16,602 bases of DNA from a virus. The stretch's first letter is position 1. Every line of letters begins with the position of its first letter. This document shows positions 1 to 16,602 of the stretch, in pieces. A model generated the notes under the pieces. It had not been told where the DNA came from, did no database searches, and saw nothing but the letters and a program-made list of their open reading frames with translations. The DNA is taken from IMG/VR virus record IMGVR_UViG_3300045988_140091, positions 1-16,602 of that record. The stretch is one strand, 5' to 3'. The position numbers were made by a program, and so were the translations under genes.

Positions 1-488
1 TTCATCTCCTTCTCAGAAGGTAATACATTCCCATCTTCATCTGTTATGAAGTACTGCAATTCCGATAATGTTCTAATAGTGCCATCTTCTTTATATTTAA
101 GTCCATAAAAGAAATCTCCCAATCCTCCATATAAAGTAATATTATAAGTAATAACTGCTTGCTTTATAGAGATGCTATTTAACTGCATATATCCTGATTC
201 AACTAAATATCCATTATTATAAATTCCAAAATCAACTCTTTTTGAAGGATCAAAATATACTCCAGAGAAATTACCTTCTTTTATATGGAGAAATCTATCT
301 AACTTATAAATCTCTCCAAAAATCTTATTATTATTCTTTGTGCTAGGTATAGAAATCGTTTTACTAAACGAGTTCTTGACTATAGTGGGGTTTTGGAAAT
401 CCTCAACAGTATATGTCATAGGAAGACTAATTCCCTCACTACAGTCAACCTCTTTATTTGCAATAAATAATTTAATATTCTTTCTCAT
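1..488 (-). CDS. virion structural protein (tail/baseplate-type by position), N-terminal 162 codons; 3' end runs off the left window edge
   Basis: ATG at 488-486, 2 nt after the TAA (491-493) of the upstream gene. Hand translation MRKNIKLFIANKEVDCSEGISLPMTYTVEDFQNPTIVKNSFSKTISIPSTKNNNKIFGEIYKLDRFLHIKEG... stays open to position 1. Absent from the ORF track because no stop lies in the window. Function inferred from position only. Confidence 0.6.
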   Translation of the reverse strand, partial: MRKNIKLFIANKEVDCSEGISLPMTYTVEDFQNPTIVKNSFSKTISIPSTKNNNKIFGEIYKLDRFLHIKEGNFSGVYFDPSKRVDFGIYNNGYLVESGYMQLNSISIKQAVITYNITLYGGLGDFFYGLKYKEDGTIRTLSELQYFITDEDGNVLPSEKEM

Positions 489-490
489 AA

Positions 491-2671
491 TTATTTACGA
501 TAAGTATCTTGAGAAGCTTCCACATTAATTGTATAATAGAACTTGTTTTTACCTTGATTAGTATAAGTTTTATATTCGCAATTTGTATCAGTAATCAATA
601 CTGGAGTGATAGTATTATCTTTAAGATTATGCAAATATACTTTGGTACTCTCAATTAGATTAAACATCTTAGAAGCTTGAATATCATTTAAATAACCAGT
701 ATAAAGAATCCAGCTTGAAGTTATAGTATTCAAATACTTATTTCTTGCAAACTCTTGTGATGTATTTAATACCTTGCGAGTATATGTTTCAGATTTAATC
801 TCATCATTCTTTTTAACATTACCCTCAACAAGTAATGAATCTCATCCACCTGCTGAATTAGTATAATATAACACATAATCTTTACCTGTAGTATCTATAT
901 CATATCTAATCTGTCTATCACTAATATTTCCGTCTTCTACAAATCCTACTATTAAATAGCTTCCACAAGGCCATAATTTATTACTTAAATCTTCTGTATA
1001 TGTATATCCATTAATTCCAGAATTTAAACTAATATCCATAGCAGTTGATGTTCCATCTACATAAAAAAATCTATTAACAACTCCAGTTCCAGTTGGTAAA
1101 ATTCAACTTGCTACTAAATATTGTCTTGGATCAACTAAACCAGTAATAGGATCACTTAACATAGTACCTTTAGTCAAATCTCTATCTTTATAACTCCAAT
1201 CATTGAAAAAAGTAATTGGTTTCTCATTTCCAGATGATGTTATCAAAGTAAATGGTTTCAAATATTCTGGAGATACTATTGTTTTTGAAGTATTAAATAT
1301 AATCCCATTAGATAGATAATTTTCAGCAACATTATTTAATAAAAACTCTACTCTATCAGTTTCTGGATATTTATAAGCCTTGCCAGCATAAACCATATCT
1401 CCTGCATAATCTAGATGATATTCAATAAAATCTGAACTGATTATCTCATTCCAAACATAATCTTTTCAAATTGGAGATATATCAGATTTAACTGATTGGA
1501 TAATATTAATAGATAAATTAATAATACTTGAACTATTCTTTATAACAGATACTCCAATGGTTGCTTTTCTTGAAGATAATCCTGAATTTTCTGCAATGTT
1601 CAAACTAATAGTTGCTACACCTTGAGAATTTACAGTTATCTTCTGTCCACTAATCCAACCTACAGGAATGCTAAATACAACATCATCTAAGTTATTAGAA
1701 CCTGTTCCCATAATATTTAATGTAGATGCAGTCCAACTTACTTCATAATTAGTATTAGGAATCACTAAATACGTTGCAGCTTGTTTAATTGGAACTGTAG
1801 CTTCAAGAGTATATCCTCCAGAAGTTGTTGCAGTAACCATTGCACTAAACTCCAAATTATTAGTAGTTTTATTCTCTGGAACAGTTAATACAAAGTAGTT
1901 ATCAATAATATCCTTTTTAATATTACTAGCTTGAGGACAGGTAACATTAAATGATGTAATAGTTTCTTCTGTTTTAGTTGTACTTAAATGAAATTCTTCA
2001 GTAACAAAAGCTGCTGCTCCATAAGTTCCAGAAGAAGGAGTTACTACCAATTTTAAATCTTCAGGAGTATTACTCTTTTCAATCTTAAAGCCATAACTAT
2101 AACTAATAAATTTATTAGTATCATAATAAGCCCCTAATTGGATAGTTGCAGTTAAATCAGTATTTCATTGAGTATTAGCTCTTACTGTAACTTTAAACTT
2201 AATAGAGCAAGAATCTCAATCCAGAACTTCCATATTAACTAAAGCTGTAGCATTAACAACTGCTGCATCTCATTTAATAATATCTGATCTATTTAATATA
2301 TACTCTACTGTATATTCTCCACCAGTATTTGGTACTTTAATGGTTCCATTAGCAGGATAATATCCAGGAGCTTTACTATGTAAATTAATTGGTAAATCTT
2401 CCCCTAATAAAGCAGTAGTAATGCCTCTAGGATAAAAATGAAATACAGTAGAAGAATCAGTAGTTATTGTTGTAGGAGATAAAAATTGTATTGTACATCC
2501 TTCTCTACTTGGATCCTGTATAGTTACATTTAAAGGCCCTTCTTCAGTATAATCATCTCCCCAAGTCCAATAATCATATTCTCCAGTAATTCCCCATCCA
2601 GGATTATTCCATTTAACAGGAAAACTCCTTGATGCATTATATATTCCTAATTTACTTGGTATAAATGCCAT
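491..2671 (-). CDS. large virion structural protein, 726 codons when TGA=Trp (tail fibre/spike-like; central Ig/BACON-like segments are a guess)
   Basis: Track fragments 2270..2671, 1466..2050, 1103..1396, 842..1039 and 491..733, plus unlisted 2051..2269, share one frame (2269-2050=219, 1465-1396=69, 1102-1039=63, 841-733=108). They are separated only by TGA (tca on + at 2270, 2216, 2165, 1466, 1103, 842). The first TAA in frame is 491-493. The 'M' at 2050 and 733 in the track are internal TTG codons. ATG at 2671 lies 2 nt after the upstream stop. Confidence 0.85.
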
Positions 2672-2673
2672 TT

Positions 2674-3162
2674 TTAAAAGTTTTTAAATAAATAATAATC
2701 TACTTGTCCTTGTAAGTCTTTAGTTATAGCATCATCAAGAAGTTCCATATAGTTGTTCTCTATATATTCTATAGTATTAGCAAGTGGATGTTTTCCTTGA
2801 GTTCCTTGAAGATGTATCTTTCTTCCAATTAAATATGCAAGTTGATCTACAGTAGGTAACTTGCCATTATAAGGTCTTGGAATTACTGGCTTAGTTTTAA
2901 TCCAACTCTTTATATCAGATAATGGAGGAAATTTACCAGCAGCTCTGCCTTCTTCAACATATTCTCAATAATCTAATAAGCTAAAATTAACCTCATATTC
3001 TCCATCCTGAGTCTCAACTATATAGTTTAAACTATTACCTAATGCTCCAGTGTCATCAGATCTGGTTTTAACTAATTCCTGTCTATAAAGAGAAATTATA
3101 AGATCTCCTCACTTCCTTAATAGCTCACTTAAATTTGAGAACTTTAATTCTTGAATATTCAT
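2674..3162 (-). CDS. HK97 gp10-like tail-completion/neck protein (162 aa, two in-frame TGA)
   Basis: ATG 3162-3160, TAA 2674-2676, 489 nt. In-frame TGA at 3109-3111 and 2965-2967. Hand translation MNIQELKFSNLSELLRK[W]GDLIISLYRQELVKTRSDDTGALGNSL...NFSLLDY[W]EYVEEGRAAGKFPPLSDIKSWIK...; the D-Y-aromatic-x-Y-V-E-x-G block resembles the gp10-family signature (recalled motif, not searched). Missing from the ORF track because of the TGAs. Confidence 0.7.
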
Positions 3163-3202
3163 TTTTGTTAAAATATATTATTTTATATATTAGTAGCTAA
3201 TG

Positions 3203-3229
3203 AAAATAGGGAGGTTTACTCCCTATTTT
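3203..3229 (-). terminator. intrinsic terminator-like hairpin (11-bp stem, 5-nt loop, A/T runs on both sides, so possibly bidirectional)
   Basis: aaaatagggag-gttta-ctccctatttt: 3203-3213 pairs with 3219-3229. Lies between the gene ending at 3284/3427 and the ATG at 3162. Confidence 0.6.
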
Positions 3230-3284
3230 ATATGTAACTTTTTTATATTATCTTAGTACCAAATATGAGTAAAAAGGTTACAGT
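3225..3284 (-). repeat. copy B of a ~60-nt intergenic hairpin element (minus orientation)
   Basis: The reverse complement reads actgtaacctttttactcatatttggtactaagataatataaaaaagttacatataaaat. By hand alignment about 52 of 60 positions match copy A (8037-8096). Arms gtaaccttttt / aaaaaagttac (one mismatch) flank a 26-nt loop. Confidence 0.7.
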
Positions 3285-3601
3285 TAATGTTTTCTTTTTC
3301 ATTCTTCAATCTGTCTATTTTCTTCATTAGCTTTATCTATAACATAGCATATAAGATTCAGGAACTCTTTAATCTGCATATCATATATCTGATGTCAATT
3401 AAATCTGGTAACTTCACTTACCTTATCTATTCAGATAATTCAGCTTCATTTTTGAGTAAAAGGATTAATCGTCTCGTCTGTATTAAGCTCTTCAGAAGTT
3501 TCCTCCTTTCCAGTTTGTCCTTGGTTTTCCTTAGTCTCTTCTTCATCTCCCTTTCCGAAGAGTGTAGGGTACTCAGCGTTGATACTTGCAATAAGTTTAC
3601 A
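3284..3601 (-). CDS. -1-frame extension ORF (105 codons, five TGA=Trp), candidate C-terminal part of a frameshift product of the 3427..4068 gene
   Basis: From TGT at 3601-3599 the -1 frame reads CKLIASINAEYPTLFGKGDEEETKENQGQTGKEETSEELNTDETINPFTQK[W]S[W]II[W]IDKVSEVTRFN[W]HQIYDMQIKEFLNLICYVIDKANEENRQIEE[W]KRKH, ending at TAA 3284-3286. There is no TAA or TAG in 105 codons. The first ATG in this frame is only at 3379. Confidence 0.45.
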
Positions 3602-4068
3602 AAAAAAAACATTATGTCTGAAAATATATCTATTGTTAGATGAGTATTTAAGAATTCTGCCTCATCAATAGGGTCATAATCTTCTCCATACTTCTTTCCA
3701 TTAGGTAGCAAGAAACAAGCTGCTAGATTAGGCATAAAATCATCATACTGCTTATAAAAATTCTGAAAGTCAATATATTGACTGGCCGTCATCTTATTAA
3801 CATTAAAAAAGACTTTATATTCCTTATTACCAATATTATAAGTAGTTTCTGGGGTTTTTGGCTTATATGGAGTCTCTATAAATTTAAGATTATTTATAAA
3901 CTCTTGTAGCTTGTTTACTTCCATATTAGTTATATCTTCTATAGGTATATCACTAAGTACAGATACCATAGCTAAATTCATATCTAATTCATTTTCCCAG
4001 TCTTTTCGTATTATCTCAAACAGTCTTTTATAATGAGATAAATCCATTTCATTCCAATTCTTTATCAT
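3427..4068 (-). CDS. hypothetical protein downstream of terL (zero-frame product, 213 aa); contains a T9 slippery run
   Basis: ORF track entry. The ATG at 4068 overlaps the terL stop (TAATG). TAG stop at 3427-3429. The last 57 residues after FFF (VNLLQVSTLSTLHSSEREMKKRLRKTKDKLERRK...) are low complexity and may not be the main product. Confidence 0.65.
   Translation of the reverse strand: MIKNWNEMDLSHYKRLFEIIRKDWENELDMNLAMVSVLSDIPIEDITNMEVNKLQEFINNLKFIETPYKPKTPETTYNIGNKEYKVFFNVNKMTASQYIDFQNFYKQYDDFMPNLAACFLLPNGKKYGEDYDPIDEAEFLNTHLTIDIFSDIMFFFVNLLQVSTLSTLHSSEREMKKRLRKTKDKLERRKLLKSLIQTRRLILLLKNEAELSE
3601..3609 (-). other. homopolymeric slippery run (T9 on the coding strand), candidate -1 frameshift or slippage site
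   Basis: a9 on the + strand at 3601-3609. The coding strand reads ATG TTT TTT TTT GTA (residues M-F-F-F-V of the 213-aa ORF), a U_UUU_UUU pattern. Confidence 0.45.
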
Positions 4069-5315
4069 TATTTAATTGCAATATTATAAGTTCCTTTATT
4101 TGTATTTAAAGCATCATAAGCTAACATTAAAGATATACAAGTATCATCATTAAATCCAGATGGAGCATTATATGATACATTTCCAGTCTTTGGATTATAA
4201 CTGGCTTCATATAGTCTTAATTCATTTAATAGTTTATCATCCTTTAAAATACCAATCTTTTCGTTTTCTAATGCAGCTTGTAGCTTATTTACAATAGCTG
4301 CCTTAGACTTATTAGTAGTTAAAAACTTAACTATCCGTAATTTAGGATTCCTTTTTACAAGAATATCATAAAACACTGAACCTATTGAGTTTTGTTCGAC
4401 TTGAACTATCTTTATAAATCCCTGATACTCAGTAAATATATTTGTCAGTAAATCAACTTGTTCTGTTGGAGTTTTGTCGTTAAAATACTTTATAAAGACC
4501 ATCTGCCCATTTTCATTTAAAGCTGTAATACAAGTATAGTCTTTACCAGAACCAGTAGCCCAGTCAACTCCAATATAGAGATTATGATATTCAGGTTTTT
4601 TATCAATTATACAGTTAGCTATATTATTAAATAGGCAACCATCATCATCTGCAAACTCTCCAAGATATTCAGTTCTAAATTTATTTTTGGAGGTTGTAAG
4701 GCGATACATTTCAAGTTTATCCTCACTTAACAGCATAGAAGTATCTTCTAATGCTCAATCAAAGGATTGATAATATTTACTAAAATTACCATCAAAGCCT
4801 TTTTTAAAGCATTCATAAAAGAATCCTTCTCTAAACCTTGGAGTACTAATTATAAGTATTGGAGCATTCCATACATCAGCGATAGGTGTTAAAATTTCGT
4901 ATACTTCATCTGATATATAAGCTGCTTCGTCAATTACTAATATTCCACTAACTGTAAATCCTCGTAATGAATCTTTTTGCTCAGCAGATTTAAATAGTAT
5001 TTCACTCCCATTAGTAAATTCAATCTCAAGCAAAGATTCATTCTTTTTCTTAATAATATCTGTGCCATCTAATGCCTTTACTAACTCTTTAAATATCTTT
5101 CTGGAGTTAGTAAGAGTTGGTTCAACAATACAGCTAATACTTCCAGGATAGTTAATTGAAAATCGTAATAGTTCATTTTCTGCCATAAAGGATTTACCAC
5201 ATTGTCTCTTTGCTTTTACAGTAAATATTTTTCCAGACCTATAAGAGTGCTCTAAAGCAGTATGTACCTTTAATTGATAGATAAATGGGCTATATCCTTT
5301 ATATATTTTTGTCAT
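4068..5315 (-). CDS. terL: terminase large subunit (about 415 aa, one in-frame TGA at 4755-4757)
   Basis: Track fragments 4755..5351 and 4068..4736 share a frame (5351-4736=615) and are joined through F-D-[TGA]-A-L-E-D-T-S. Walker A KAKRQCGKSF, Walker B ILVIDEAAY, nuclease-half acidic motifs IGVDWATGSG and FNDDTCISL. Start taken as ATG 5315 (MTKIYKGYSPFIYQ..., 17-nt overlap with terS); ATG 5351 is an alternative. Confidence 0.9.
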
Positions 5316-5742
5316 TGTTAATTGGATCTCCAAATTTAAACTGGACTTCATTATTCTGAATAGCTACAATAGTCTCAGGTTGATTTAATCCAAACATACT
5401 ATTTATAGTCTTAATAATCTCATTTGCAGCTCTAATATCTCCCTTACTAATAGCAGTATCCAGTAATGATTCCAATCTTGATAATTGTATATGTCTAAGA
5501 TTTTTTATAAGGTTATCATTCTTTTCAGCAATTATCTTATAAGCTTCTCCAATATATCTTGCAGCCGTTGATTGGCTTACATTATATTTACTTTGAAGTT
5601 CTTCACTTACTTTATTCCTTGACCATCCTTTGTTAAATAACCTTGCAGCATAAAGATATTTAGTCTTTACTTCGTCTATTTGTTCCTTTTCTACCTCTGC
5701 CTTTTTCGGTCTCCCTACTTTCTTCTTTATTTGCTCCTTCAT
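5299..5742 (-). CDS. terS: terminase small subunit-like HTH protein (147 aa)
   Basis: Sits immediately upstream of and overlaps terL. N-terminal MKEQIKKKVGRPKK followed by an HTH-like stretch WSRNKVSEELQSKYNVSQSTAARYI. The first 'M' in the track (5748) is TTG; ATG at 5742. Confidence 0.65.
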   Translation of the reverse strand: MKEQIKKKVGRPKKAEVEKEQIDEVKTKYLYAARLFNKGWSRNKVSEELQSKYNVSQSTAARYIGEAYKIIAEKNDNLIKNLRHIQLSRLESLLDTAISKGDIRAANEIIKTINSMFGLNQPETIVAIQNNEVQFKFGDPINNDKNI

Positions 5743-5992: not shown

Positions 5993-6014
5993 TTTTATTT
6001 AAAATATATTATTT

Positions 6015-6341
6015 TTAATCCAAGTATTTATAAACTATATCTATTAGTTTGGTAATCATATCTTTAATTAGAATCATACAATCCTTTATAACTGGAGTCA
6101 TAAATGCGATTAAAGCAATATATGCAATCATTAAGAAGCTTAATTGTCCAGTTACTAAGATATATAGTAAACTTGCCCACCAAGTACAGCATAGAGAACA
6201 TCCAAATAAAGGTATAGACCAATCAGTGTATTTAACTCCAGGATATAGTTTACTTCATACCCATCTATTTGCCTTGTCCATAGCTCCAGATAAATCAATA
6301 CAGAAGACAAGAATAATAGCTATAAAAAGTATGCTTAACAT
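6015..6341 (-). CDS. small integral membrane protein (108 aa, one in-frame TGA at 6255-6257)
   Basis: Hand translation MLSILFIAIILVFCIDLSGAMDKANRWV[W]SKLYPGVKYTDWSIPLFGCSLCCTWWASLLYILVTGQLSFLMIAYIALIAFMTPVIKDCMILIKDMITKLIDIVYKYLD, TAA at 6015-6017. Three hydrophobic stretches. The start overlaps the upstream stop (ATGTTAA). It replaces the antisense + ORF 6049..6363. Confidence 0.65.
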
Positions 6342-6580
6342 AACCTCTCTCTTATTTGTTTAATAAATCTCTGAATAGTCGTATGACTAATTCCCAGAAT
6401 CTTCCCAACTTCTCTATAACTTCGATATTCAGCATATAAGATAATTATGGTCTTATCTGCTCTATTTAATGCCTCTCATTTCGGATAAATTGCAAGTAAT
6501 CTATCATCCATCTCTGTAAAGGTATCTATTTCAAAGTTATACTCAATTAATAAATCATCAATATTAATCTTCTGCTTCAT
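6335..6580 (-). CDS. HTH protein resembling sigma-70 region 4 / LuxR-type HTH (81 aa, one in-frame TGA at 6476-6478)
   Basis: Hand translation MKQKINIDDLLIEYNFEIDTFTEMDDRLLAIYPK[W]EALNRADKTIIILYAEYRSYREVGKILGISHTTIQRFIKQIRERLC. The pattern L-x-x-x-(D/E)-(K/R)-x-I-x-x-L-Y ... S-Y-x-E-(V/I)-G-x-x-L-G-I-S-x-x-T-(V/I) is typical of sigma region 4.2. Confidence 0.55.
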
Positions 6581-6872
6581 TTAACCAATCCTCTAAATTA
6601 TCCGTTTGTTGTTCTAATGGCTCTTTAAATATTTCATAGTACTTTTTATATTGGTAATAGTATCTACTATTCTTAGAAAACCAATTATTCTTAAATACTC
6701 TTGTAATCCAATACTTCAGCTCATTCTTACTATCTAATGACTGAAGCTTGGAATTAGATGTTTCCAGAAGTGCAATTAAACACATCTGGAAACAATCGTC
6801 ATCCATCCCAAATTTAACCTTTAGTTCTAAGCAGAATTCATAATATTTGGTAAGTATTTCATTATTCGTCAT
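6564..6872 (-). CDS. hypothetical protein with weak sigma-70 region-2-like motifs (102 aa)
   Basis: ORF track entry. DDDCFQMCLIALLE ... ELKYWITRVFKNNWF resembles D-x-x-Q-x-x-(F/L) and W-(L/I)-x-x-(I/V)-x-x-N of region 2 (weak, by eye). Overlaps the downstream HTH ORF by 17 nt in a different frame. Confidence 0.35.
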   Translation of the reverse strand: MTNNEILTKYYEFCLELKVKFGMDDDCFQMCLIALLETSNSKLQSLDSKNELKYWITRVFKNNWFSKNSRYYYQYKKYYEIFKEPLEQQTDNLEDWLNEAED

Positions 6873-7296
6873 TTCTTATATAATTACTAAAAGTTGTGTC
6901 TATTTCTAATTTAATTGCTTTCTTTAAAGATAACTCTGTTTTTAAAGAGTATTTATATTCTCCTCCAAAATCAGTTGTACTTCTTCCATATTTCATTGAA
7001 TCTTTAATAAAAGCTCTTTTTACATCTTTATAAATATAAACTCCATCCTCAAATATAATGACTAATATAGAGTTACATTTACTAAGTATATCAAACTTAT
7101 CCCTGTTTATAATTGTAGTTGGATATTTATCTGATTTAAATCTTCTCCTTTTAACTTCAATTATATAATCTATATTATTCCAAGTAAATGTTCCATCATA
7201 TCTGGAATAATCGTCTTTACATCATTCTATTTCTATATTATATTTATCTTTAAATAGATTCTTTATAAAGACTAAACTTCTTATATCTGTTTTCAT
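6862..7296 (-). CDS. putative PD-(D/E)XK-type nuclease (144 aa, one in-frame TGA at 7222-7224)
   Basis: Hand translation MKTDIRSLVFIKNLFKDKYNIEIE[W]CKDDYSRYDGTFTWNNIDYIIEVKRRRFKSDKYPTTIINRDKFDILSKCNSILVIIFEDGVYIYKDV... ending at TAA 6862-6864. D ... E-V-K arrangement (YDG ... IIEVKRR). The ATG overlaps the upstream TAA (TAATG). Confidence 0.45.
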
Positions 7297-7526
7297 TATC
7301 TTACATTATGAATTTTTAAGGTTACATCACAATACTGTTCATATAATTCAGAACTTCCAGGATTATGCCACATTACAGAGTCTAATTTATGCTGAAGTTC
7401 TGCCTGTTCTAATCTAAGCTCAAATGTTTTAGTTTGGTAGTCTCCATAAGCATTATATACTCTAATACCAGCTATAATAAAGCTAAGTACTAATAATCCA
7501 GCTAATATTTTATTTATCTTTTTCAT
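7296..7526 (-). CDS. small single-pass membrane protein (76 aa)
   Basis: ATG at 7526 (MKKINKILAGLLVLSFIIAGIRVYNAY...). The track start at 7568 is a TTG. TAA at 7296-7298. Confidence 0.6.
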   Translation of the reverse strand: MKKINKILAGLLVLSFIIAGIRVYNAYGDYQTKTFELRLEQAELQHKLDSVMWHNPGSSELYEQYCDVTLKIHNVR

Positions 7527-7537
7527 AATTAAATATA

Positions 7538-7717
7538 TTAGAAAGAAATACCTAAACCAAAAAACCAAGAGGATTTCTTTACCTTTTCATTGGTTTCAAT
7601 CTCCTTTAATGCCTCATTACATAATTCTTGAGCTTTCTCAATAGAACCATCTTCAGTAATCTTACCATCTAATATATCAAGAAAATATTCAAGTGCTTCA
7701 ATTTGTTTAGTTTTCAT
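7538..7717 (-). CDS. small hypothetical protein (59 aa), first gene of the leftward unit
   Basis: Hand translation MKTKQIEALEYFLDILDGKITEDGSIEKAQELCNEALKEIETNEKVKKSSWFFGLGISF, TAA at 7538-7540. About 40 nt downstream of the leftward promoter. Confidence 0.55.
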   Translation of the reverse strand: MKTKQIEALEYFLDILDGKITEDGSIEKAQELCNEALKEIETNEKVKKSSWFFGLGISF

Positions 7718-7763
7718 AATTTATAAAGTTTAATTGTTAATATTATGTCTTACTTTCATAGTA

Positions 7764-7795
7764 CAAATATACAACAAAAAATTCATATTTCCAAA
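7764..7795 (-). promoter_or_regulatory. leftward Bacteroidota-type promoter (-33 TTTG, 20-nt spacer, -7 TATATTTG)
   Basis: Minus strand: TTTG (7795-7792), 20 nt, TATATTTG (7771-7764). Matches the Bacteroides TTTG / TAnnTTTG consensus. Embedded in the 20-bp repeat TTGTTGTATATTTGTACTAT (7777-7758). Confidence 0.6.
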
Positions 7796-7852
7796 TATTT
7801 TATGCATTTTTTCAAAAAAATATTACTATTTGTATTTTTTAGTGCTAAAAAT

Positions 7853-7883
7853 TTTGTAGATTAAAAAATTATTCTTATATTTG
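7853..7883 (+). promoter_or_regulatory. rightward Bacteroidota-type promoter (upstream copy)
   Basis: TTTG 7853-7856, 19-nt spacer, TATATTTG 7876-7883. Confidence 0.5.
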
Positions 7884-7932
7884 TAGTGTGATAATAAAAA
7901 TACAATTTTAAATAAAAATAATGCTTAAATTA

Positions 7933-7964
7933 TTTGGAGATTGAGAAAAATTGTTGTATATTTG
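7933..7964 (+). promoter_or_regulatory. rightward Bacteroidota-type promoter (downstream copy)
   Basis: TTTG 7933-7936, 20-nt spacer, TATATTTG 7957-7964. Embedded in TTGTTGTATATTTGTACTAT (7951-7970), the exact inverted copy of 7758-7777. Confidence 0.6.
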
Positions 7965-8036
7965 TACTATCAAACTAAAACTACTTCCATATTGAAAATT
8001 GAGCTGGGATTAATTTCCAGTTTAATTTTAACCTTT

Positions 8037-8096
8037 ACTGTAACTTTTTTACTAATATTTTGTAGTAAGATAAATAAAAAAAGTTACATATAAAAT
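8037..8096 (+). repeat. copy A of the ~60-nt intergenic hairpin element, in the 5' leader of the helicase gene
   Basis: actgtaacttttttactaatattttgtagtaagataaataaaaaaagttacatataaaat. The 12-bp arms tgtaactttttt (8039-8050) and aaaaaagttaca (8077-8088) flank a 26-nt loop. Ends 26 nt before the ATG at 8123. Confidence 0.7.
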
Positions 8097-8122
8097 TTAT
8101 TAACTTATTAAAAATTACTATT

Positions 8123-9841
8123 ATGAAAACTTATTTAAATAATTTAATCAATGAATTACCTACTAACTGCTTATTTGACAAAGGTAAAGTAGGATGTGGT
8201 GGAACTTCAATGGCTTTAGAGTGTGATAAGCCTTATGTTATATGTGTTCCATTTGTAAGCTTAGTTGAGAATAAACTTGCTCAATATCCTAATGAAAGAC
8301 GTAAAGAGCCTATTTTTGGAGTTTATCAAGGTATTACTAAGACAGACATTGAAGCTTATGTATCTTCAGTTAAATGCCCTAAAATCATTGTTACTTATAA
8401 TTCTCTTTATAAAGTAATAGAAGCAGTAAATCCTAAAGATTATAGCTTATTAATTGATGAATATCATATACTATTTAATCAATATAGTCTTAGAAGAGAT
8501 GCAATTAAAGATGTATTAAAGACATATAGTCTATTTAAAGAATATACATTTATGACTGCAACTCCATTAGAAGATGAATTTGTTTTAGATGAATTGTCTA
8601 AACTGCCATTAGTAAAACAAGAATGGGATGATGTTATTGAGACTAAAGTTCAGACTGTTAAATGCAAGAATGTAGAAGCTTCCACAATTAAGCTTATAAA
8701 TGGATTTTTAAGTGGGAATGTTGAAGGTAATGCTTATATATTTGTTAACTCTGTTGACTTTATAAAGAATCTTATTTTAAAGGCTAAACTTACAGCAGAT
8801 AACACAAGAGTAGTATATTCTAAGAATAATAGAACTAAACTGCCAATTCAGAATTCTTCAGTAAATGATGAACCTAAGAAGATTAATTTGTTGACTTCTA
8901 CTGTATTTGAAGGTTCTGATATTTATGATGAAAATGGAAGAATTATTGTAGTTAGTGATTCCTCTAAAGCTCAGACTCTTTTAGATATATCTACTTCAAT
9001 TCAACAGATTGCTGGTAGAATTAGAAATAGTAAATATTTAAATTGGATTACTCATCTTTATTCAGCCACAAGATATGCAGAGATAGATTATGATACATTT
9101 AAAAATAATACATTAAAGAATATTGAAGAAACAAAGATTGCAGTTGAATCATATAATCAGCTTCCAGAAGTAGCTCGTAAGAAGATTACAGACTTTACAA
9201 GTGACACATATATTCAAATTAATGAGGATTATACCTTTGAATTTGACCCAAATATGGCTAAAGTAGATATATTCAATTTTAAGGTTGCAAGAGGTTTATA
9301 CTCTGTAAGAGTTAATCTTACTAATGAATATCTAAAGAATGGCTTTATAAAGGTTGCTGAATGTGAAGATAAGTCTATTAAGATAGACCTTGAAGCTCCA
9401 AGTAAGTCGTTTCAGGAGCTTATTAAAGATGTAAGAGCTGAATGGGAAACTAAATTTAAAGTTGGAACTCCTATATTAAATGAAGCTCTAATTAAATATC
9501 CTTGGTTAAATGATGCAATTAATAAACTGGGATTTGAAAGAATGGCAACTTTGGGTTATTGCATTAAAGATATTAAAGAGGAGCTTGTTAAAATATCAGA
9601 TAAAAATATGCCAAATAAGGTTGCCAAATTACTTACAAGAGATATTCAGAATGGTATGTTCTACAATTTAGCTTTATTGAAGAATAAGATTGCTGATGTA
9701 TATAAGACTTTAGGTATAAAGAAAACTGCAAAGGCAACAGATATTGAACACTATTTTGAAGTTAGAAAATCAACTAAAACTGAAAAGGATGTTAGAAGCA
9801 AAGGATACATTATTATTAGACCAAGATTCATATTTAAATAG
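8123..9841 (+). CDS. SF2 DExH-type helicase-like protein (572 aa) with a C-terminal extension of unknown function
   Basis: ORF track entry. Motif I-like GKVGCGGTS, motif II LLIDEYH, motif III MTATP, motif VI-like QQIAGRIRN. TAG stop followed by TAA four codons later. No in-frame TGA; its four Trp are all TGG. Confidence 0.75.
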   Translation: MKTYLNNLINELPTNCLFDKGKVGCGGTSMALECDKPYVICVPFVSLVENKLAQYPNERRKEPIFGVYQGITKTDIEAYVSSVKCPKIIVTYNSLYKVIEAVNPKDYSLLIDEYHILFNQYSLRRDAIKDVLKTYSLFKEYTFMTATPLEDEFVLDELSKLPLVKQEWDDVIETKVQTVKCKNVEASTIKLINGFLSGNVEGNAYIFVNSVDFIKNLILKAKLTADNTRVVYSKNNRTKLPIQNSSVNDEPKKINLLTSTVFEGSDIYDENGRIIVVSDSSKAQTLLDISTSIQQIAGRIRNSKYLNWITHLYSATRYAEIDYDTFKNNTLKNIEETKIAVESYNQLPEVARKKITDFTSDTYIQINEDYTFEFDPNMAKVDIFNFKVARGLYSVRVNLTNEYLKNGFIKVAECEDKSIKIDLEAPSKSFQELIKDVRAEWETKFKVGTPILNEALIKYPWLNDAINKLGFERMATLGYCIKDIKEELVKISDKNMPNKVAKLLTRDIQNGMFYNLALLKNKIADVYKTLGIKKTAKATDIEHYFEVRKSTKTEKDVRSKGYIIIRPRFIFK

Positions 9842-10001
9842 AATTGCGGATATTAAAGAAACTCTTAAAAAGTCAGAAGATACTATTAAGGAGTTTGATA
9901 AGTGAATGAATGAATTTAAAGAGAATTCTAAGAAATTAGGAGATATTATAGATAGAGTATTAGCACAAAGAGATTTTACATTTATTTCAAAATTTGATTA
10001 A
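9789..10001 (+). CDS. small coiled-coil-like ORF (70 aa, one in-frame TGA at 9903-9905); start uncertain
   Basis: Hand translation MLEAKDTLLLDQDSYLNRIADIKETLKKSEDTIKEFDK[W]MNEFKENSKKLGDIIDRVLAQRDFTFISKFD, TAA at 9999-10001. Overlaps the helicase 3' end by 53 nt. Under the standard code only a 31-aa ORF from ATG 9906 remains. Confidence 0.4.
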
Positions 10002-10003
10002 TT

Positions 10004-10138
10004 ATGGATGATTTTTTATTTAAAAAGCTTGAAGAACTAGAATATAGAATAGTTCAATTAGAGAACCAAAACAAAGGGTTAGTTTGGGAAGAAGTAGAAG
10101 AAAAACCAGAGATTCCTAACGCAACATATATTGACTAA
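10004..10138 (+). CDS. small hypothetical protein (44 aa)
   Basis: MDDFLFKKLEELEYRIVQLENQNKGLVWEEVEEKPEIPNATYID. Starts 2 nt after the previous stop. TAA at 10136-10138. Confidence 0.5.
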   Translation: MDDFLFKKLEELEYRIVQLENQNKGLVWEEVEEKPEIPNATYID

Positions 10139-10139
10139 T

Positions 10140-10280
10140 ATGAAGTACTTTACATATAAATTATGCTTAAATGGAGTAAATTACGTTTATGTAATTCCCG
10201 AAAATAGTAAATTCTTAGTAGATTTACAAACTGGAGAATTAATACCTAAAGATGAGAAATTATTTGAGATAATGGAATAA
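10140..10280 (+). CDS. small hypothetical protein (46 aa)
   Basis: MKYFTYKLCLNGVNYVYVIPENSKFLVDLQTGELIPKDEKLFEIME. Starts 1 nt after the previous stop. TAA at 10278-10280, directly followed by a terminator. Confidence 0.5.
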   Translation: MKYFTYKLCLNGVNYVYVIPENSKFLVDLQTGELIPKDEKLFEIME

Positions 10281-10282
10281 AC

Positions 10283-10318
10283 AAAAAGGAGGGTTATTTG
10301 CCCTCCTTTTCTTTTTTA
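10283..10318. terminator. bidirectional intrinsic terminator at the convergence of the plus module and the minus-strand lysis/HNH unit
   Basis: aaaaaggaggg-ttatttg-ccctcctttt followed by cttttttatt. GGAGGG (10288-10293) pairs with CCCTCC (10301-10306), extended by A/T pairs, and a T-run follows on the + strand. Overlaps the last codons of the HNH gene. Confidence 0.7.
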
Positions 10319-10632
10319 TTAAACCTTTGATAATTACTTACTGCCGAATGTATAGCTTTATGACATACTGAACATAATGTTATCAAATCTTCCAAATGGT
10401 CTTGCTCCTCATATAAATTGTCATACCTCTTATGATGTACCGATAATGACCTGTTTCCGCCTTCCTCAACGCATCAATTACAAGTTTGGCAGTGGTAGTT
10501 ATCCCGCAACAAAACTTGCTCTCTAATCGCCTTAAATTCCTTTGAGCGGATATATCTTTGGTACTTTAAATATTCTTCACTTCTTACTTTCCTCTTAGTC
10601 TTATGAAGCAATTTACTTGATTTGGAATCCAT
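10294..10632 (-). CDS. HNH endonuclease (112 aa, one in-frame TGA at 10474-10476)
   Basis: Hand translation MDSKSSKLLHKTKRKVRSEEYLKYQRYIRSKEFKAIREQVLLRDNYHCQTCN[W]CVEEGGNRSLSVHHKRYDNLYEEQDHLEDLITLCSVCHKAIHSAVSNYQRFNKKEKEGK. C-x-x-C ... H-H ... C-x-x-C-H-x-x-I-H arrangement. Not in the ORF track. Confidence 0.8.
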
Positions 10633-10634
10633 AA

Positions 10635-11087
10635 TTATATAATAATAAATTTCTGTCGTCTTTGCATCCCGTCTTTATTCTTTAATCCCAAGTGTATTCA
10701 ACTTGCTATACCATTCTTAGGCTTTTCATATATCAACTGGTCTCAATTTAATTCTTCGATAGCTTCAGCAATCCAACTTTGGAATACTTTCATATTACCA
10801 TTAATTGGAGATATATCTGCTGCATACCCTGTTAAATGAGCAGAAGTTGAAGATCCTCCCACTGCTTTATTAAGCTCCTTATTCCTAAAACCAGAGGAAA
10901 TCCTGATGCCTGCATTGCCAAGCTGATTGTCATCACAATACTTTGCCCATCTATCTCTTATTGGGTCTAAAAGCTTCTCGACCAACTCTATCAGGTGCTC
11001 TGTTATACTCTCATCTGGAGTGTTATTTATATGCTTAATTGAAGCAGTATCAGATCTTGTTAATTCTTCGAGTGTGAAATACTTCAT
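10635..11087 (-). CDS. peptidase M15-family endolysin (150 aa, two in-frame TGA at 10743-10745 and 10698-10700)
   Basis: The track ORF 10743..11087 (…SGFRNKELNKAVGGSSTSAHLTGYAADI…, H-x6-D Zn motif) continues in frame: ...EELN[W]DQLIYEKPKNGIAS[W]IHLGLKNKDGMQRRQKFIII, TAA at 10635-10637. The DQLI ... W-x-H block is the usual C-terminal Zn-ligand segment of this family (recalled). Confidence 0.85.
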
Positions 11088-11245
11088 TATTTATATGAAT
11101 TATGCAGTTTATAAAGGTAAATAAAATAGCACACTGCTCCAAATAACGTTAAACTAATAGTAATCCAAAAAGGAATTACTTTAATTAACAAAAATGCAAT
11201 CATTAATAGTACAACTACTATTACATATTTTAACCAATATTTCAT
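11087..11245 (-). CDS. holin-like small membrane protein (52 aa, two hydrophobic segments)
   Basis: Hand translation MKYWLKYVIVVVLLMIAFLLIKVIPFWITISLTLFGAVCYFIYLYKLHNSYK. Its TAA overlaps the endolysin ATG (TAATG at 11089-11085). Confidence 0.6.
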   Translation of the reverse strand: MKYWLKYVIVVVLLMIAFLLIKVIPFWITISLTLFGAVCYFIYLYKLHNSYK

Positions 11246-11246
11246 A

Positions 11247-11903
11247 TTATATTTTATTTAAAATTATACTTATCTGTATTCCAGCTCTTCTTAGATGTAC
11301 TCAAGTATCATAAGGCATAGGTGTATCACAGAATGACAAACCTAAAATGCCAATATCTTTATCCTCAGTCTTTAAATAAAATACTGCTATTTCATTCACT
11401 CTGTTGGATTTAAATGCATAATATAATCTTGGATCATCTGCTTCTAAACTATCTATATTACCAAACCATCCATCATTCTTAGAAAACTCTATAATTGAAG
11501 TATAGTCAGATAACAGGAAATCTTTATAATGGCTACTTACAGATCTTATTCCTGGTTTTACTTCCTCTGCATTCATTACTCCATAAGTAAATGGAAGTCC
11601 TCCTAATCCAGTAGTTCCATTATGATATTCAATAACCCAAGCTCTATCAGCATTTGTGCTTTGAAGCAATTCTTTAAGCTTATATTTAATCTTTAAAGTT
11701 GCTTTATTTCTTGCAATAGTTTTAGAATTGTGAGTTTGTTCAATATAGGTTACAACCTTATTATAAACAATAAAGGGATTAAGTGTAATAACCATTACAT
11801 AGGATATAAATATTAATCCAATCCCTGCTTTAAATATCTTTAGTAATCCATATTTATCAACCCATTCTAATACTTTACCAAACCAATTTAATTTATTTTC
11901 CAT
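11247..11903 (-). CDS. membrane-anchored hypothetical protein (218 aa with TGA=Trp at 11301-11303)
   Basis: Track ORF 11301..11903 plus an 18-codon in-frame extension ...MPYDT[W]VHLRRAGIQISIILNKI to TAA 11247-11249. That stop ends 1 nt before the holin-like ATG. N-terminal TM segment IGLIFISYVMVITLNPFIV. Confidence 0.6.
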
Positions 11904-12328: not shown

Positions 12329-12330
12329 AA

Positions 12331-13026: not shown

Positions 13027-14101
13027 CTATTTTAGAATCAGCTGTATCTAAGCTAAATGGGGTAATTGTGATAGAATTCTTCATACCAAAGATTTTGTCA
13101 AATGTATCACAAATCTCTTTTTGTATAGGTTTAATCATCGTTCTATTATATAGTTTAAATGATGAATTAAACTCTTGCTCATTAAATCCAGTAGAATCAG
13201 AGTTTATTCCAAATAAATTAGGGTTAGCTCTAAATGCGCAGAATATCTGTTCTCTTGTCCTATCAGATAAAGCACTATATTTCTCATCAAAATCATCAGA
13301 ATCTAAACGCTCAATAGTAGTCTTATTTGTTTCATCATCATTATATGAAATAAGAACTCTACCTGCATTTTGAAATCCTGAGAATTTCTCATTAATATTC
13401 ATCTCAATCTCTTCTTTAACTTCATCTGTAGGCTGTCCGTTATTAAAGTTAATGATAATATTACCCATAAATCCGTTATGAAGAGAATTTAGATGGAACT
13501 CATTAATATTCTTCTCAGTTTCGCAAGATAGGATAGCTGCACCATAAACAGGGACTGGATATACTTTTCTTGTTATATAGCCCTTATTATAAACAACACT
13601 TGTAGGATTATCATCTGAATAATTAAATTTTGGATATTTGATAGCTTTAATAGACCAAGCAGACCAATCATCGGCATAATAGAATACTTCATTCTTTTCA
13701 TCAGAACGAATCTTCATAAAGTCAAGATGATAGATCTCTGAAACTCTACCTAACATATCTCTAATTATTTGTAAAGCATATCCTCCAAAAATCATCTTAT
13801 CTTTAGATACTTTACGCATAATATCCATAATAGTTTCACCTTTCTTATTTACAGTTACTTCAAATCCTGGTGCATTACATACAACATCATTACCAACAAT
13901 AAAGTCAGCAGTACCATTAATGATAGATTGAAGAGTAGCTACATTTAAATATAGATCCCATAAATATACAGGATAGCGATTATCTTCACCCCAAGAAATA
14001 TAGTCCTTACCTCTAACTTTACCTTCTACTGGCAATACGATGTTTGATACAATTACTGGATCAATTGCACTTAATTGTACTTTTGTTTTATTTTCGCTCA
14101 T
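13019..14101 (-). CDS. putative portal protein (360 aa)
   Basis: ORF track entry. Motif-level resemblance to portal proteins (ISWGEDNRYPVYLWDLYLNVATLQSIINGTADFIVG; C-terminal FNEQEFNSSFKLYNRTMIKPIQKEI). Not verified by search. No in-frame TGA. Confidence 0.55.
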   Translation of the reverse strand: MSENKTKVQLSAIDPVIVSNIVLPVEGKVRGKDYISWGEDNRYPVYLWDLYLNVATLQSIINGTADFIVGNDVVCNAPGFEVTVNKKGETIMDIMRKVSKDKMIFGGYALQIIRDMLGRVSEIYHLDFMKIRSDEKNEVFYYADDWSAWSIKAIKYPKFNYSDDNPTSVVYNKGYITRKVYPVPVYGAAILSCETEKNINEFHLNSLHNGFMGNIIINFNNGQPTDEVKEEIEMNINEKFSGFQNAGRVLISYNDDETNKTTIERLDSDDFDEKYSALSDRTREQIFCAFRANPNLFGINSDSTGFNEQEFNSSFKLYNRTMIKPIQKEICDTFDKIFGMKNSITITPFSLDTADSKIVE

Positions 14102-14480
14102 AACTTACGTATGTATTAGGTTTGTCGTATTGATAATTATTATTCTCATAATCTCCAATTCTTATTAATCCTGTTCCCAATATAGGTATTGGTTTACCAG
14201 CAACTAATATCTGAGTACCATTAGTAAGAGTATTATTATATGTAACCAGAATAACTGGATTGCCATATAACTCTGATCTAAATGGATTGTTTACATCAAC
14301 TATAACTTGAAATTTATTTGGATTAGTAAATAAAATATATTGATATTCACCGTCTCTCATTCCTTCTTGAAGTGTAATATCAAACTTATAGTAGATATTC
14401 TCAGAATAATTCTGATTTTCAAGATCAAATGTATAAACTTCTTTAGTAGTTGTATGCTGTAAAATAAGGCTATAATTCAT
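14088..14480 (-). CDS. hypothetical protein (130 aa)
   Basis: ORF track entry. Overlaps the portal start by 14 nt and the recoded end of the GIY-YIG gene by 11 nt. Confidence 0.55.
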   Translation of the reverse strand: MNYSLILQHTTTKEVYTFDLENQNYSENIYYKFDITLQEGMRDGEYQYILFTNPNKFQVIVDVNNPFRSELYGNPVILVTYNNTLTNGTQILVAGKPIPILGTGLIRIGDYENNNYQYDKPNTYVSYERK

Positions 14481-15135
14481 ATTTTCAAATATATTTTTTA
14501 TATGTTGAAGTTATTCCTCGCAGAGCATTATACACTCCACTTCTAATAAATTCATCTTCTATGTCTTTTGCCCTATTATATCGCTTAATAAGAACTCCAT
14601 CTAAAGAATATCTTAATATAGATTTATATTTTGTATTAGTTCTAGTTTCTCAAGATTTCTTAATTGATTCTTTAGTCTCTTTGCTTCTCTTTCTACCATA
14701 TAAAGGGCAAAGCTCTCCAATTTTGCCATACATACTTGAATGCTTACCATACATTGGATTTTTAGAACCTTTTTTGGATTTTGATATTTTTGCTTTTGTA
14801 ATTGCATTTACAATGTGGCCAGATGTTCCATCTCCTCCATCAGTCATATTATATCCTCTATCCTTAGTACTAAACAATTCAATATAATGCTTTTCTGCTT
14901 CATCTAGCTTTTTATTTAACAAACTTGATGTAGAGCAACAAAATACCTGTATAACTTCAATAATAAAATTCTCTTCACCATACTTTCTCATTGCTCGGCT
15001 TAAATGATAATTTAGACCATTTCTCGCCTTTAACTTGTGTTCAGTAAATCTTTGATTTACATCTCGTACAGTCTTACCAATATAAATTTTATTATTTACC
15101 AAATTGGTAATTTTATATATTACACCGCTTTTCAT
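14470..15135 (-). CDS. GIY-YIG homing endonuclease with NUMOD3-like repeats and a C-terminal DNA-binding tail (221 aa, two in-frame TGA at 14650-14652 and 14485-14487)
   Basis: The track ORF 14650..15135 (GVIYKITNLVNNKIYIGKT ... RFTEHK ... GYNMTDGG; SKKGSKNPMYGK / PLYGRKRSKETKESIKKS) continues in frame: [W]ETRTNTKYKSILRYSLDGVLIKRYNRAKDIEDEFIRSGVYNALRGITSTYKKYI[W]KYEL to TAG 14470-14472. The ending x-x-Y-I-W-K-Y matches the usual C-terminal motif of free-standing homing endonucleases. Confidence 0.85.
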
Positions 15136-15202
15136 AATTTTTACATTAGTTTTACATATCTTTTTCTTAAAATATAAACTAATTTACTAATGTATTAAAA
15201 TA

Positions 15203-15230
15203 ATTAAAGGAGACCTAAGCCTCCTTTAAT
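15203..15230 (-). terminator. intrinsic terminator-like hairpin (10-bp stem, 8-nt loop)
   Basis: attaaaggag-acctaagc-ctcctttaat: 15203-15212 pairs with 15221-15230. Lies between the LRR gene stop (15281) and the GIY-YIG ATG (15135). Confidence 0.55.
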
Positions 15231-15279
15231 GTCAAGTTTTTTACTCACTCAAAGTACTAAGAAAAAATAAAAACTGACA
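15230..15279 (+). repeat. copy C (diverged) of the intergenic hairpin element, plus orientation
   Basis: tgtcaagttttttactcactcaaagtactaagaaaaaataaaaactgaca. Loop segments actca...gtactaaga...aat are shared with copy B (about 18 of 26 loop positions). The arms tgtca(a)gttttt / aaaaac-tgaca differ from A/B but are still complementary. Confidence 0.55.
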
Positions 15280-15280
15280 A

Positions 15281-16258
15281 TTAGTTTGAACTTGCTAAAG
15301 TTCAGTTTTTAGATGTAGCTAATGATTTCTGTTCCTCAGTAAGGGTATTATAAACAGCAGAATTAAATGTAATAGTTTGAGCTGTTTCCCCAGTTAAATC
15401 AATTACAGACTCCAATACATTATTAACAGAGGATTCAGTTAAACCAGATAAATTTGTTAAATTAAAGGACTTATTTGTCACAACCCCACCAAAATCAGTC
15501 AAATTTGGCATATAATAACTAGATCCGAATGTGTATCCAAATGCAGTACCCTCTAAAGCTGTATTATTAGCTATAGTTATTTTACCTAATGATTTTAAAG
15601 ATGCACAATTCATAAACATCCTATTTGTTTGTCCACTACATTGAGGTGCATATATATCAGGTATTGTTTCTAATGATTCACAATTCTCAAATATGCCTGA
15701 AAGAGAAGTTGCTATTGAAAAATCCATAGTAGGTAATATTTTTAACCTTCTGCATCCATAGAAAGTTTGAACAAACTGTACAAGTTTTAAAGTGGCATTT
15801 ATCTCAACTAAATGTTGACAATTATAAAATAATGAAGAACCATTAGAACTAGTACTATTTAATAAGGTTATTTTAGAAATTTTATTAATAGAAGAGTAAG
15901 AATGAAATAAATCATTCATAAGTTTATTCTGACAATCAAATGTAAAAGTATCTCCTGCACCTCATTCACAACCATAGAAAAAATAATTATAATTTGATTT
16001 GTTCATTATAAAATAATTTTCTAGTTTGTCTTCTCCGCCATCTCTAAATCTATGCATATTAGAAAAACCTAATGATATTGGAATAATACTTAAATCTATT
16101 TTTCCGCCACCTCCAGACTCAATCTGTCCTATCTTATCTGCATAACTTCTAAAGGTATCTGAATCTGATACAGCAACACCTTTAGCTACAATAGCATCTT
16201 TAATGGCACTCTTAGTACCTTCAAGATACGTTAATTTATCAGAAATTGTATTTGCCAT
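15281..16258 (-). CDS. BspA-type leucine-rich-repeat protein, probable receptor-binding/tail-associated protein (325 aa, two in-frame TGA at 15962-15964 and 15302-15304)
   Basis: Track ORFs 15962..16258 and 15302..15919 share a frame (15961-15919=42), joined via ...FFYGCE[W]GAGDTFTFDCQNKLMNDLF... and extended ...ATSKN[W]TLASSN to TAA 15281-15283. Repeated F-x-x-C-x-x-L units (FYNCQHLVEI, FYGCRRLKIL, FENCESLETI, FMNCASLKSL). Confidence 0.8.
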
Positions 16259-16259
16259 A

Positions 16260-16602
16260 TTAGATATATTTAAATTTTACCCCTTTATAAGTGTCTGTTC
16301 TTCCTTTAAGACAATCTATAACTCTACTATGAGTATACCCATCTATTGATGTTTCAATTGCATTTTTATATGTTTTAACTAGTAAATCATTAATAAATAG
16401 CCCTACAGGTTTACTAATTTTATCAATACATCTATTTATTCTAGTTCCATATGTATTATTATACTTTGCATCACATCATTCTAAATTTTCTACCCTATTA
16501 TCTGTCTTATTTTCATTTATATGGTTAACATATGGTAGATTGTCAGGATTTGGAATAAATGCTTCTGCTACTAGTCTGTGAACTTTAATAGCTTTAGGTT
16601 TA
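16260..16602 (-). CDS. HNH (HNH_3-type) homing endonuclease, C-terminal 113 codons; 5' end beyond the right window edge; one in-frame TGA at 16476-16478
   Basis: Hand translation ...[41 protein letters not shown][W][74 protein letters not shown] at 16260-16262. Classic HRLVAEAF ... VNHI-x-x-x-K-x-DNR-x-x-NLEW signature with TGA at the Trp. Confidence 0.85.

Follow-up and report, generated by a model that had tools for sequence, protein, structure and literature searches.

Genes and Reading Frames of the Window

The stretch of DNA described here (the window) covers positions 1 to 16,602 of the IMG/VR virus record IMGVR_UViG_3300045988_140091 and is 16,602 bp long with a GC content of 29%. It very probably represents about half of the genome of a tailed human-gut phage of approximately 31 kb, in which TGA is an ordinary tryptophan (Trp) sense codon and only TAA and TAG terminate translation; since its host most likely belongs to the Bacteroidota (Bacteroidales) and uses the standard code, the recoding would be phage-specific. 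Pfam profiles match the large terminase subunit (Terminase_6N and Terminase_6C), the portal, an endolysin (Peptidase_M15_3) and endonucleases of the HNH, HNH_3 and GIY-YIG/NUMOD3 types, with further matches to BspA-type LRR_5, DUF6712 and a helix-turn-helix (HTH)/sigma region-4 domain (Table 1). A DNA-level search of GenBank phages returned nothing similar to the window, and the capsid protein had no match in the phage collection.

A reading made from the letters and their open reading frames (ORFs), without database searches (the sequence-only reading), had listed 21 TGA codons within 12 genes, with no TAA or TAG to be read through and with every gene ending in TAA or TAG. All of this was verified. 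Each of the 21 coordinates is a TCA on the + strand, that is, a TGA on the - strand, and lies in frame within an ORF called with translation table 4; the in-frame stop triplets over 25 gene models are 21 TGA, 0 TAA and 0 TAG. Given that TGA makes up 28% of the stop triplets in the two other frames, 21 of 21 in frame corresponds to P = 2.7e-12. TAA or TAG closes every complete gene model, none is terminated by TGA, and neither frameshifts nor TAA nor TAG ever interrupt a frame, which TGA alone does. A further in-frame TGA, absent from the earlier list, is present at 9903-9905 in a + strand ORF.

The proposed comparison of translation tables also favors table 4, under which the coding density of the window is 0.88 (0.67 under table 11) and the ORFs that reach 100 aa amount to 6333 aa in total (4697 aa under table 11). 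Reading through TAG as a control gives 5150 aa in ORFs of this size; reading through TAA gains more than TGA, which is expected at 29% GC and uninformative. Table 11 mis-annotates a third of the genome and makes terL, the tail genes and the endolysin look broken, so that table-4 gene calling is needed for the whole clade to which the phage belongs.

The Clade and Its Complete Genome

In IMG/VR 35 loci contain a relative of terL, of which 34, at 50-100% identity, form the clade; the 35th (L035) is 25% identical and uses the standard code. The members are mostly contigs of about 31 kb from human-gut data, and a scan with the portal supplied the other halves. The window itself probably derives from a human-gut scaffold of 30.8 kb in ENA, and the LiuR_2017 sample (ENA ERZ28595389) is a fecal sample with the phage. 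Five genomes of approximately 29-31 kb were fully rebuilt, one of them bounded by a terminal repeat: contig 3300045988_085915 is complete at 31,151 bp with a 119-bp terminal repeat. It carries about 36 genes, which occupy a single strand except for the g14 operon and one homing endonuclease, and its coding density is 0.95 with table 4 vs. 0.64 with table 11. The terL and portal scans recovered the TGA pattern in over 30 independent contigs from several metagenomes.

TGA as a Tryptophan Codon

The alignment columns strongly support Trp as the meaning of TGA, and neither glycine (Gly) nor gene decay, as the sequence-only reading had favored. At the TGA columns of the window the relatives carry TGA 287 times, TGG 124 times, TAT, TAC, TTT or TTC 44 times, TCC three times and a Gly codon (GGA) once, and at its TGG columns they carry TGA in 212 of 1043 codons. 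The six columns of g2 contain TGA or TGG, with TTT three times. In g3, TGA and TGG occur 14 and 18 times at 2965, and TGA and TAT 15 and 17 times at 3109. For g25, where a Trp had been expected in the NLEW block of HNH_3, the column includes 10 TGG beside 14 TGA, together with two TAC and one GGA. The C-terminal KN-TGA of the BspA-type protein has its counterpart in paralogs of the complete relative, which end in the same ...KNW... motif.

Comparison beyond the clade is possible for the endolysin and for TerL. Opposite the TGA at residue 130 of the endolysin, five homologs in the standard code (from Bacteroides, crAss-like, Moraxella and Achromobacter phages) have the invariant Trp of the W-x-H block, in agreement with the assignment made from the sequence; opposite residue 115, the other TGA, they have Phe or Tyr. 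The terL gene, which had been said to be incomplete unless TGA is decoded, is a single gene across its TGA: the Pfam Terminase_6N domain (residues 49-243) runs across TGA residue 199, the column holds TGA 24, TGG 3 and TTT 1 in relatives, and residues 13-422 match full-length TerLs of cultured phages in one piece (25-28% identity). The true start of terL is probably the ATG at 5315 (MTKIYKGY...) rather than 5351; upstream of it, relatives L014, L016 and L026 have a TAA or TAG stop. The highest numbers of TGA per ORF are 11 in c23 of the complete relative (1118 aa) and 6 in g2, and TGA is translated efficiently enough for ORFs holding 6-11 of these codons.

Table 1. Features of the window, with in-frame TGA codons (first position on the + strand) and the codons of relatives at the same columns.
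Feature	Coordinates	Strand	In-frame TGA and remarks
g2, 726-aa tail/baseplate-like	491-2671	-	2270, 2216, 2165, 1466, 1103, 842; continuous table-4 ORF
g3, neck/tail-completion-like (PHROG 5)	2674-3162	-	3109, 2965
terL (Terminase_6N + Terminase_6C)	4068-5351	-	4755
g8, small membrane protein	6015-6341	-	6255; relatives TGA 26, TGG 2
g9, HTH/sigma-70 region-4-like	6335-6580	-	6476; relatives TGA 22, TGG 7
g10	6564-6872	-	with g9 covers extracytoplasmic function (ECF) sigma profile
g11, 144 aa	6862-7296	-	7222; relatives TGA 28, TGG 2; third gene after leftward host-type promoter
g12 + g13, promoter-proximal pair of main operon	7296-7717	-	TGA-free here and in most relatives
Divergent control region (406 bp)	7717-8123		three Bacteroidota-type promoters, TTTG-N19-20-TAnnTTTG
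Predicted promoter	7764-7795	-	motif match
Predicted promoter	7853-7883	+	motif match
Predicted promoter	7933-7964	+	motif match
g14, SF2 (superfamily 2)-helicase-fold (predicted)	8123-9841	+	4 Trp codons, all TGG
70-aa ORF downstream of g14	9789-10001	+	9903-9905
Bidirectional intrinsic terminator	10283-10311		separates convergent g14 operon from main operon end
g15, HNH endonuclease	10294-10632	-	10474; relatives TGA 5
g16, Peptidase_M15_3 endolysin	10635-11087	-	10743, 10698
g18, 218-aa membrane-anchored protein	11247-11903	-	11301; relatives TGA 18
g23, GIY-YIG/NUMOD3 homing endonuclease	14470-15135	-	14650, 14485
g24, BspA-type LRR_5 tail-fiber-like	15281-16258	-	15962, 15302
g25, HNH_3 endonuclease, 5' end cut by window	16260-16601	-	16476

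Distribution of TGA Among Genes

TGA is unevenly distributed. Counted over distinct orthologs, the TGA/TGG numbers are 1/92 in g14 (20 orthologs), 0/48 in the major capsid protein, 1/35 in the tube, 7/95 in the portal and 0/17 in the holin-like protein. TGA accounts for 46% of the Trp codons in terL, for 30-41% in the large tail proteins and, among the five small genes c30-c34, for 30% in c32 and 56-73% in the other four. Counted per Trp column, TGA has a share of 0.055 in 24 columns from g14, from the portal, capsid, tube, scaffold and protease genes and from three small genes, vs. 0.47 in 86 other columns (Mann-Whitney p = 1.6e-7); the groups of this comparison were defined post hoc, and the columns are correlated by phylogeny. 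The overall share of TGA among Trp codons is 34% in the window and 25-66% in its relatives, and the other A-ending codons reach 62-89% in the clade.

Both transcription units contain TGA. In most relatives no TGA occurs in the genes next to the control region, g14 in one direction and g13 and g12 in the other, and in the main operon TGA begins at the third gene. A scheme of recoded late genes and standard early genes fits this arrangement only in part. The TGA of the 70-residue ORF downstream of g14 is kept in 14 of 14 close orthologs, and the homologous Trp is TGG in relative L008.

The Host

Several indirect lines support the walled, standard-code, Bacteroides-like host that had been proposed from the sequence. 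The motif TTTG-N17-23-TAnnTTTG has three matches in the entire window, all within the control region, one directed toward the main operon and two toward g14, and these motifs recur at the same place in relatives. A Shine-Dalgarno motif precedes none of the 37 genes examined. Among 282 matches to the endolysin the closest belong to phages of Gram-negative bacteria (Moraxella, Achromobacter), and phages of Bacteroides and Prevotella are the largest host group (73 of 282). The g14 family occupies 39 loci in genome representatives, nearly all of them Bacteroidota, including isolates of Dysgonomonas, Alistipes, Odoribacter, Parabacteroides and Proteiniphilum; the loci outside this phylum are contigs of metagenome-assembled genomes (MAGs), mostly short, and two of them are recoded phage contigs in MAG bins. 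In relative L034 the place of g14 is taken by a tyrosine integrase gene without TGA, whose family adjoins g14 in Bacteroidota genomes. Taken together, promoters, missing Shine-Dalgarno motifs, endolysin, helicase and integrase families and a shared fiber segment make a standard-code host from the Bacteroidota (Bacteroidales) most likely.

The fiber segment is found in contig 105798 of the small phages, where 1.7 kb at the 3' end of the tail-fiber gene are approximately 90% identical to the fiber of phages of about 168 kb. These possess a crAss-like TerL (772 aa) and are heavily TGA-recoded (TGA/TGG approximately 70/25). These findings concern L123 1-18614 and L118-L133 (IMG/VR contigs of 85-170 kb) and L056 1-1682, and among the large phages the fiber segment is 89-99% identical; megablast of a large-phage segment against GenBank phages found no relative. 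The 148-kb IMG/VR contig 3300045988_175865 was considered as a host contig and rejected, being a chimera with a crAss-like phage joined at the fiber segment.

Alternative Explanations

A host that natively uses code 4, with a code that the phage would simply have in common, is very unlikely; it could belong to the Mycoplasmatales, to the reduced gut Eggerthellaceae described recently or to an uncatalogued lineage, and would make a suppressor unnecessary. The low GC content, the presence of TGA in both transcription units and also near the promoter, and the close relative's complete genome without a tRNA would suit such a host, yet TGA provides only a minority to two thirds of the Trp codons (25-66%) despite the preference for A-ending codons; in native code-4 genomes it makes up 80-90% of them (10.1101/2022.06.29.495998). 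Most GenBank code-4 phages do infect Mycoplasma or Spiroplasma (PMC11210395), but an M15 endolysin and a holin-like gene speak against wall-less Mollicutes, and the closest endolysin relatives all stem from phages of Gram-negative hosts. Code-4 Eggerthellaceae with 31-40% GC inhabit the mammalian gut (PMC13462651); the Bacteroidota-type promoters and the missing Shine-Dalgarno motifs, however, point to neither Actinomycetota nor Bacillota, the helicase and integrase families sit in Bacteroidota genomes, and the clade has its fiber module in common with crAss-like phages. A Bacteroidota genome with table 4 is not known (10.64898/2026.05.24.727570), and genome-wide surveys report none (10.64898/2026.05.24.727570, PMC13092985, PMC13462651).

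There is likewise little probability that TGA remains a stop codon and that the genes are expressed through readthrough, either programmed or at a low level, with TGA acting as a leaky attenuator of protein dosage. Among the stop codons UGA leaks most, tRNA-Trp reads it, and both the absence of a suppressor gene and the avoidance of TGA in the proteins needed in the largest amounts are compatible with this idea. At natural rates, however, ORFs with 11 (c23) or 6 (g2) TGA codons would give a negligible yield, close relatives interchange TGA and TGG freely, and TGA terminates no gene. The +4 nucleotide and the position within the gene are no different for TGA than for TGG, which is the behavior of an ordinary sense codon and not of a leaky stop dependent on context.

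The two remaining explanations have a negligible probability. Pseudogenes of a decaying element, or sequencing and assembly errors, would explain the fragmented look of the genes under table 11, but are refuted by interruptions that consist of TGA only, by the conservation of the same sites as TGA or TGG in over 30 independent contigs that come from different samples, and by the existence of a complete genome with a terminal repeat. Decoding as Gly (code 25 of Absconditabacteria, Gracilibacteria and their phages, the latter known from human-associated samples; PMC10746230) or as selenocysteine is refuted by the columns and the endolysin alignment, with one Gly codon (GGA) against 124 TGG among 459 aligned codons, out-group homologs that show Trp or Phe/Tyr, and 21 sites at Trp positions that are incompatible with selenocysteine.

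Phage-specific recoding of TGA to Trp in a standard-code host remains the preferred interpretation, against which, besides the post hoc grouping of the Trp columns, several points have to be set. The genes g11, g9 and g8, just downstream of a host-type promoter, require TGA decoding, and L027 and L034 open the main operon with a gene carrying 4-7 TGA codons. A terL scan of genome representatives yielded no relative and no prophage link to a host, and both the phylum and the code of the host are reached through indirect lines. Finally, TGA recoding is found in two unrelated phage lineages with a common fiber module, and this could reflect a property of the host side.

How UGA May Be Read

The sequence-only reading had noted that no suppressor tRNA or release-factor gene is visible in the window, which is equally true of the complete genome of the close relative. 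Neither the window nor any of 70 loci of the small-phage clade, which include every piece of the five rebuilt genomes, has a tRNA detected by ARAGORN, and Rfam at E <= 5 gave no tRNA match in the whole genome of the relative. Annotated genes of the window and of the complete relative include no release factor, tryptophanyl-tRNA synthetase (TrpRS) or integrase. A hidden suppressor tRNA was also rejected, as ARAGORN in its default, relaxed, intron and mitochondrial modes produced nothing consistent, with relaxed settings returning noise only. One call of an "mt-tRNA(tca)" (11469-11532) falls within g18 and is conserved only in close relatives. The conserved stretch 9841-10294, considered as an RNA gene, contains three small protein genes and the bidirectional terminator instead.

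A tentative proposal, ranked first, is that the tRNA reading UGA would be supplied in trans, by the host cell, by a resident element or by a co-infecting opal-recoded crAss-like phage with the common fiber module. It is possible, though somewhat doubtful, that a phage protein neutralizes release factor 2 (RF2), so that UGA would be read, through C-A wobble, by the host tRNA-Trp(CCA); candidates for such a protein would be the products of g12, g13 and g14, which lie next to the promoters and are free of TGA. An RNA too aberrant for detection by ARAGORN or Rfam is improbable, and a natively code-4 host slightly more so. If UGA decoding were slow or limited, this would account for the avoidance of TGA in the genes with the highest expression, such as those for capsid, tube, portal and scaffold. 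Candidate code-switch factors are few, because the genome has about 36 genes and no tRNA. TGA near the promoter fits poorly with a switch operated by a conserved early phage protein and favors a cell that already reads UGA.

In general terms, and with low confidence, the clade may switch on or exploit UGA-to-Trp decoding without a tRNA gene of its own, either through a protein that disables RF2 or through an existing capacity of the cell. If so, the same decoding would cover the TGA-recoded prophages and helicase islands of cultured Proteiniphilum and Alistipes. The clade offers a clean small case, with a relative's complete genome, that bears on a recognized problem: most opal-recoded phages have no detectable UGA suppressor. 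This contrasts with the amber-recoded relatives, which carry a suppressor beside the same helicase gene.

Recoded Elements with the Same Helicase Family

Prophages with in-frame TGA occur in chromosomes of Bacteroidota. One (L104 1-14538) lies in Proteiniphilum acetatigenes DSM 18083 (NZ_KB905697.1, approximately 164.4-179 kb) and a second (L080 1-15545) in the Bacteroidaceae MAG chromosome OY764215.1. Both combine a serine recombinase with a g14-like SF2 helicase, and more than half of their ORFs contain at least one in-frame TGA. The Pfam domains of the capsid protein, the S78 prohead protease and TerL span TGA, and TGA terminates the host genes on the flanks. No tRNA(tca) was found in the stretches examined (14,538 and 15,545 bp). 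Such prophages in cultured Bacteroidota provide strains that could serve for a direct measurement of UGA decoding, and the one in the cultured Proteiniphilum could be a model for it.

W168, the invariant Trp of the helicase, has TGA as its codon in 13 of 38 genome loci, among them cultured Alistipes (A. putredinis DSM 17216, A. timonensis JC136 and A. muris DSM 112343; L108, L113, L094, L115) and nine further loci. The Alistipes gene, located in small islands of integrase and helicase beside tRNA genes, is otherwise intact and has 2-3 TGA and 0-1 TGG codons. These islands could be satellite-like, with a replication gene translated only during UGA decoding. Near the helicase gene of the TGA-recoded elements there is no tRNA(tca), and within ±10 kb of it no gene family was found that is specific to these elements and common with the clade.

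Some relatives with the same helicase family are TAG-recoded (L075/L079 8781-8868, L112 12194-12360, L074/L081), with a coding density of 0.77-0.89 when TAG is read through and 0.45-0.65 with table 11. In the amber-recoded relatives, genes for suppressor tRNAs with a CTA anticodon (Sup-CTA) lie less than 1 kb upstream of the helicase gene (two phage contigs). Two TAG-recoded contigs sit in MAG bins labeled Bacillales and Erysipelotrichaceae, which could mislead host prediction.

Comparison with Known Recoded Phages

The phage belongs to a known class, the TGA-to-Trp recoded gut phages (Ivanova et al., 2014; Yutin, 2021, PMC7886860; Borges, 2021/22, 10.1101/2021.08.26.457843; Pfennig, 2022; Cook, 2024). 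It shares with them the alignment of in-frame TGA with Trp, a coding density that rises strongly under table 4, gut origin, a host that probably uses the standard code, and recoded terL, tail and lysis genes. The lack of a suppressor tRNA with a TCA anticodon (Sup-TCA) is also common among code-4 phages, since such a tRNA was found in only 35% (Borges, 10.1101/2021.08.26.457843), 15% (PMC11210395) or 3 of 17 (10.1101/2022.06.29.495998) of the genomes surveyed. By contrast, the code-4 clades Jade, Sapphire and Agate have genomes of 127-200 kb with a suppressor tRNA, and some also encode RF1 and TrpRS; the present clade has 31 kb and none of these. It differs as well from a simple early/late split, in that capsid, tube and portal avoid TGA and promoter-near genes use it.

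Compared by description, the Garnet, Amethyst and Topaz phages (Borges; 22-34 kb) resemble the clade in genome size, in one recoded block of structural and lysis genes, and in having relatives with different codes, here the TAG-recoded phages with the same helicase family. The hosts of Garnet are Bacteroidetes (Prevotella), and the integrase genes of the three groups contain no recoded stop, as in relative L034. The published examples of these three groups, unlike the clade, are mainly TAG-recoded with Sup-CTA.

Opal-recoded zeta crAss-like phages ("Echekviridae," PMC12386605) likewise read TGA as Trp in terL, structural and lysis genes, and several show opal recoding without a detected Sup-TCA tRNA (PMC12386605, Table 1). 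Their virion and replication modules are unrelated, and the genome of the present phage is about five times smaller; the fiber segment alone is common with a crAss-like phage of approximately 168 kb. The nearest TerLs of cultured phages are those of Halorubrum, Thermus and Meiothermus phages, and no crAss-like record is among the best 30 TerL matches listed. The phage is not crAss-like. A side observation concerns the crAss-like phage cr114_1 (NC_055897.1, Suoliviridae), whose annotated endolysin (L071 301-693) contains three in-frame TAG, indicating amber recoding in a RefSeq record.

Mycoplasma and Spiroplasma phages are similar in reading TGA as Trp, in lacking a suppressor tRNA and in low GC, but their hosts have no peptidoglycan, whereas an M15 endolysin is present here. 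Promoters, translation signals and gene families that point to Bacteroidota, and TGA as a minority Trp codon, set the clade further apart.

Other Features of the Genome

Within the main operon, g10 and g9 overlap by 17 nt and match positions 7-105 and 113-161 of TIGR02937, each under the curated cut-off. From these matches, the pair (6335-6872) could be a split or frameshifted phage sigma factor, and if it is real, this would explain why host-type promoters are confined to the control region. On the other side of that region, g14 has no match by sequence in Pfam, NCBIfam, PHROG or PDB, and its SF2 helicase fold is predicted from a structure model (predicted local distance difference test score, pLDDT, 76). 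The terminator between the two operons is strong and overlaps the stop codon of g15, and it accounts for a weak Rfam match to "sraA." The gene for a small membrane protein (holin-like) adjoins that of the M15 endolysin.

Homing-type endonucleases (HNH, HNH_3 and GIY-YIG) are encoded at 10294-10632, 14470-15135 and 16260-16601 of the window and at 2352-2921, 28996-29490 and 30494-30982 of contig 085915. Their number and place vary among close relatives and mark breaks in nucleotide similarity, and all of these genes use TGA for Trp.

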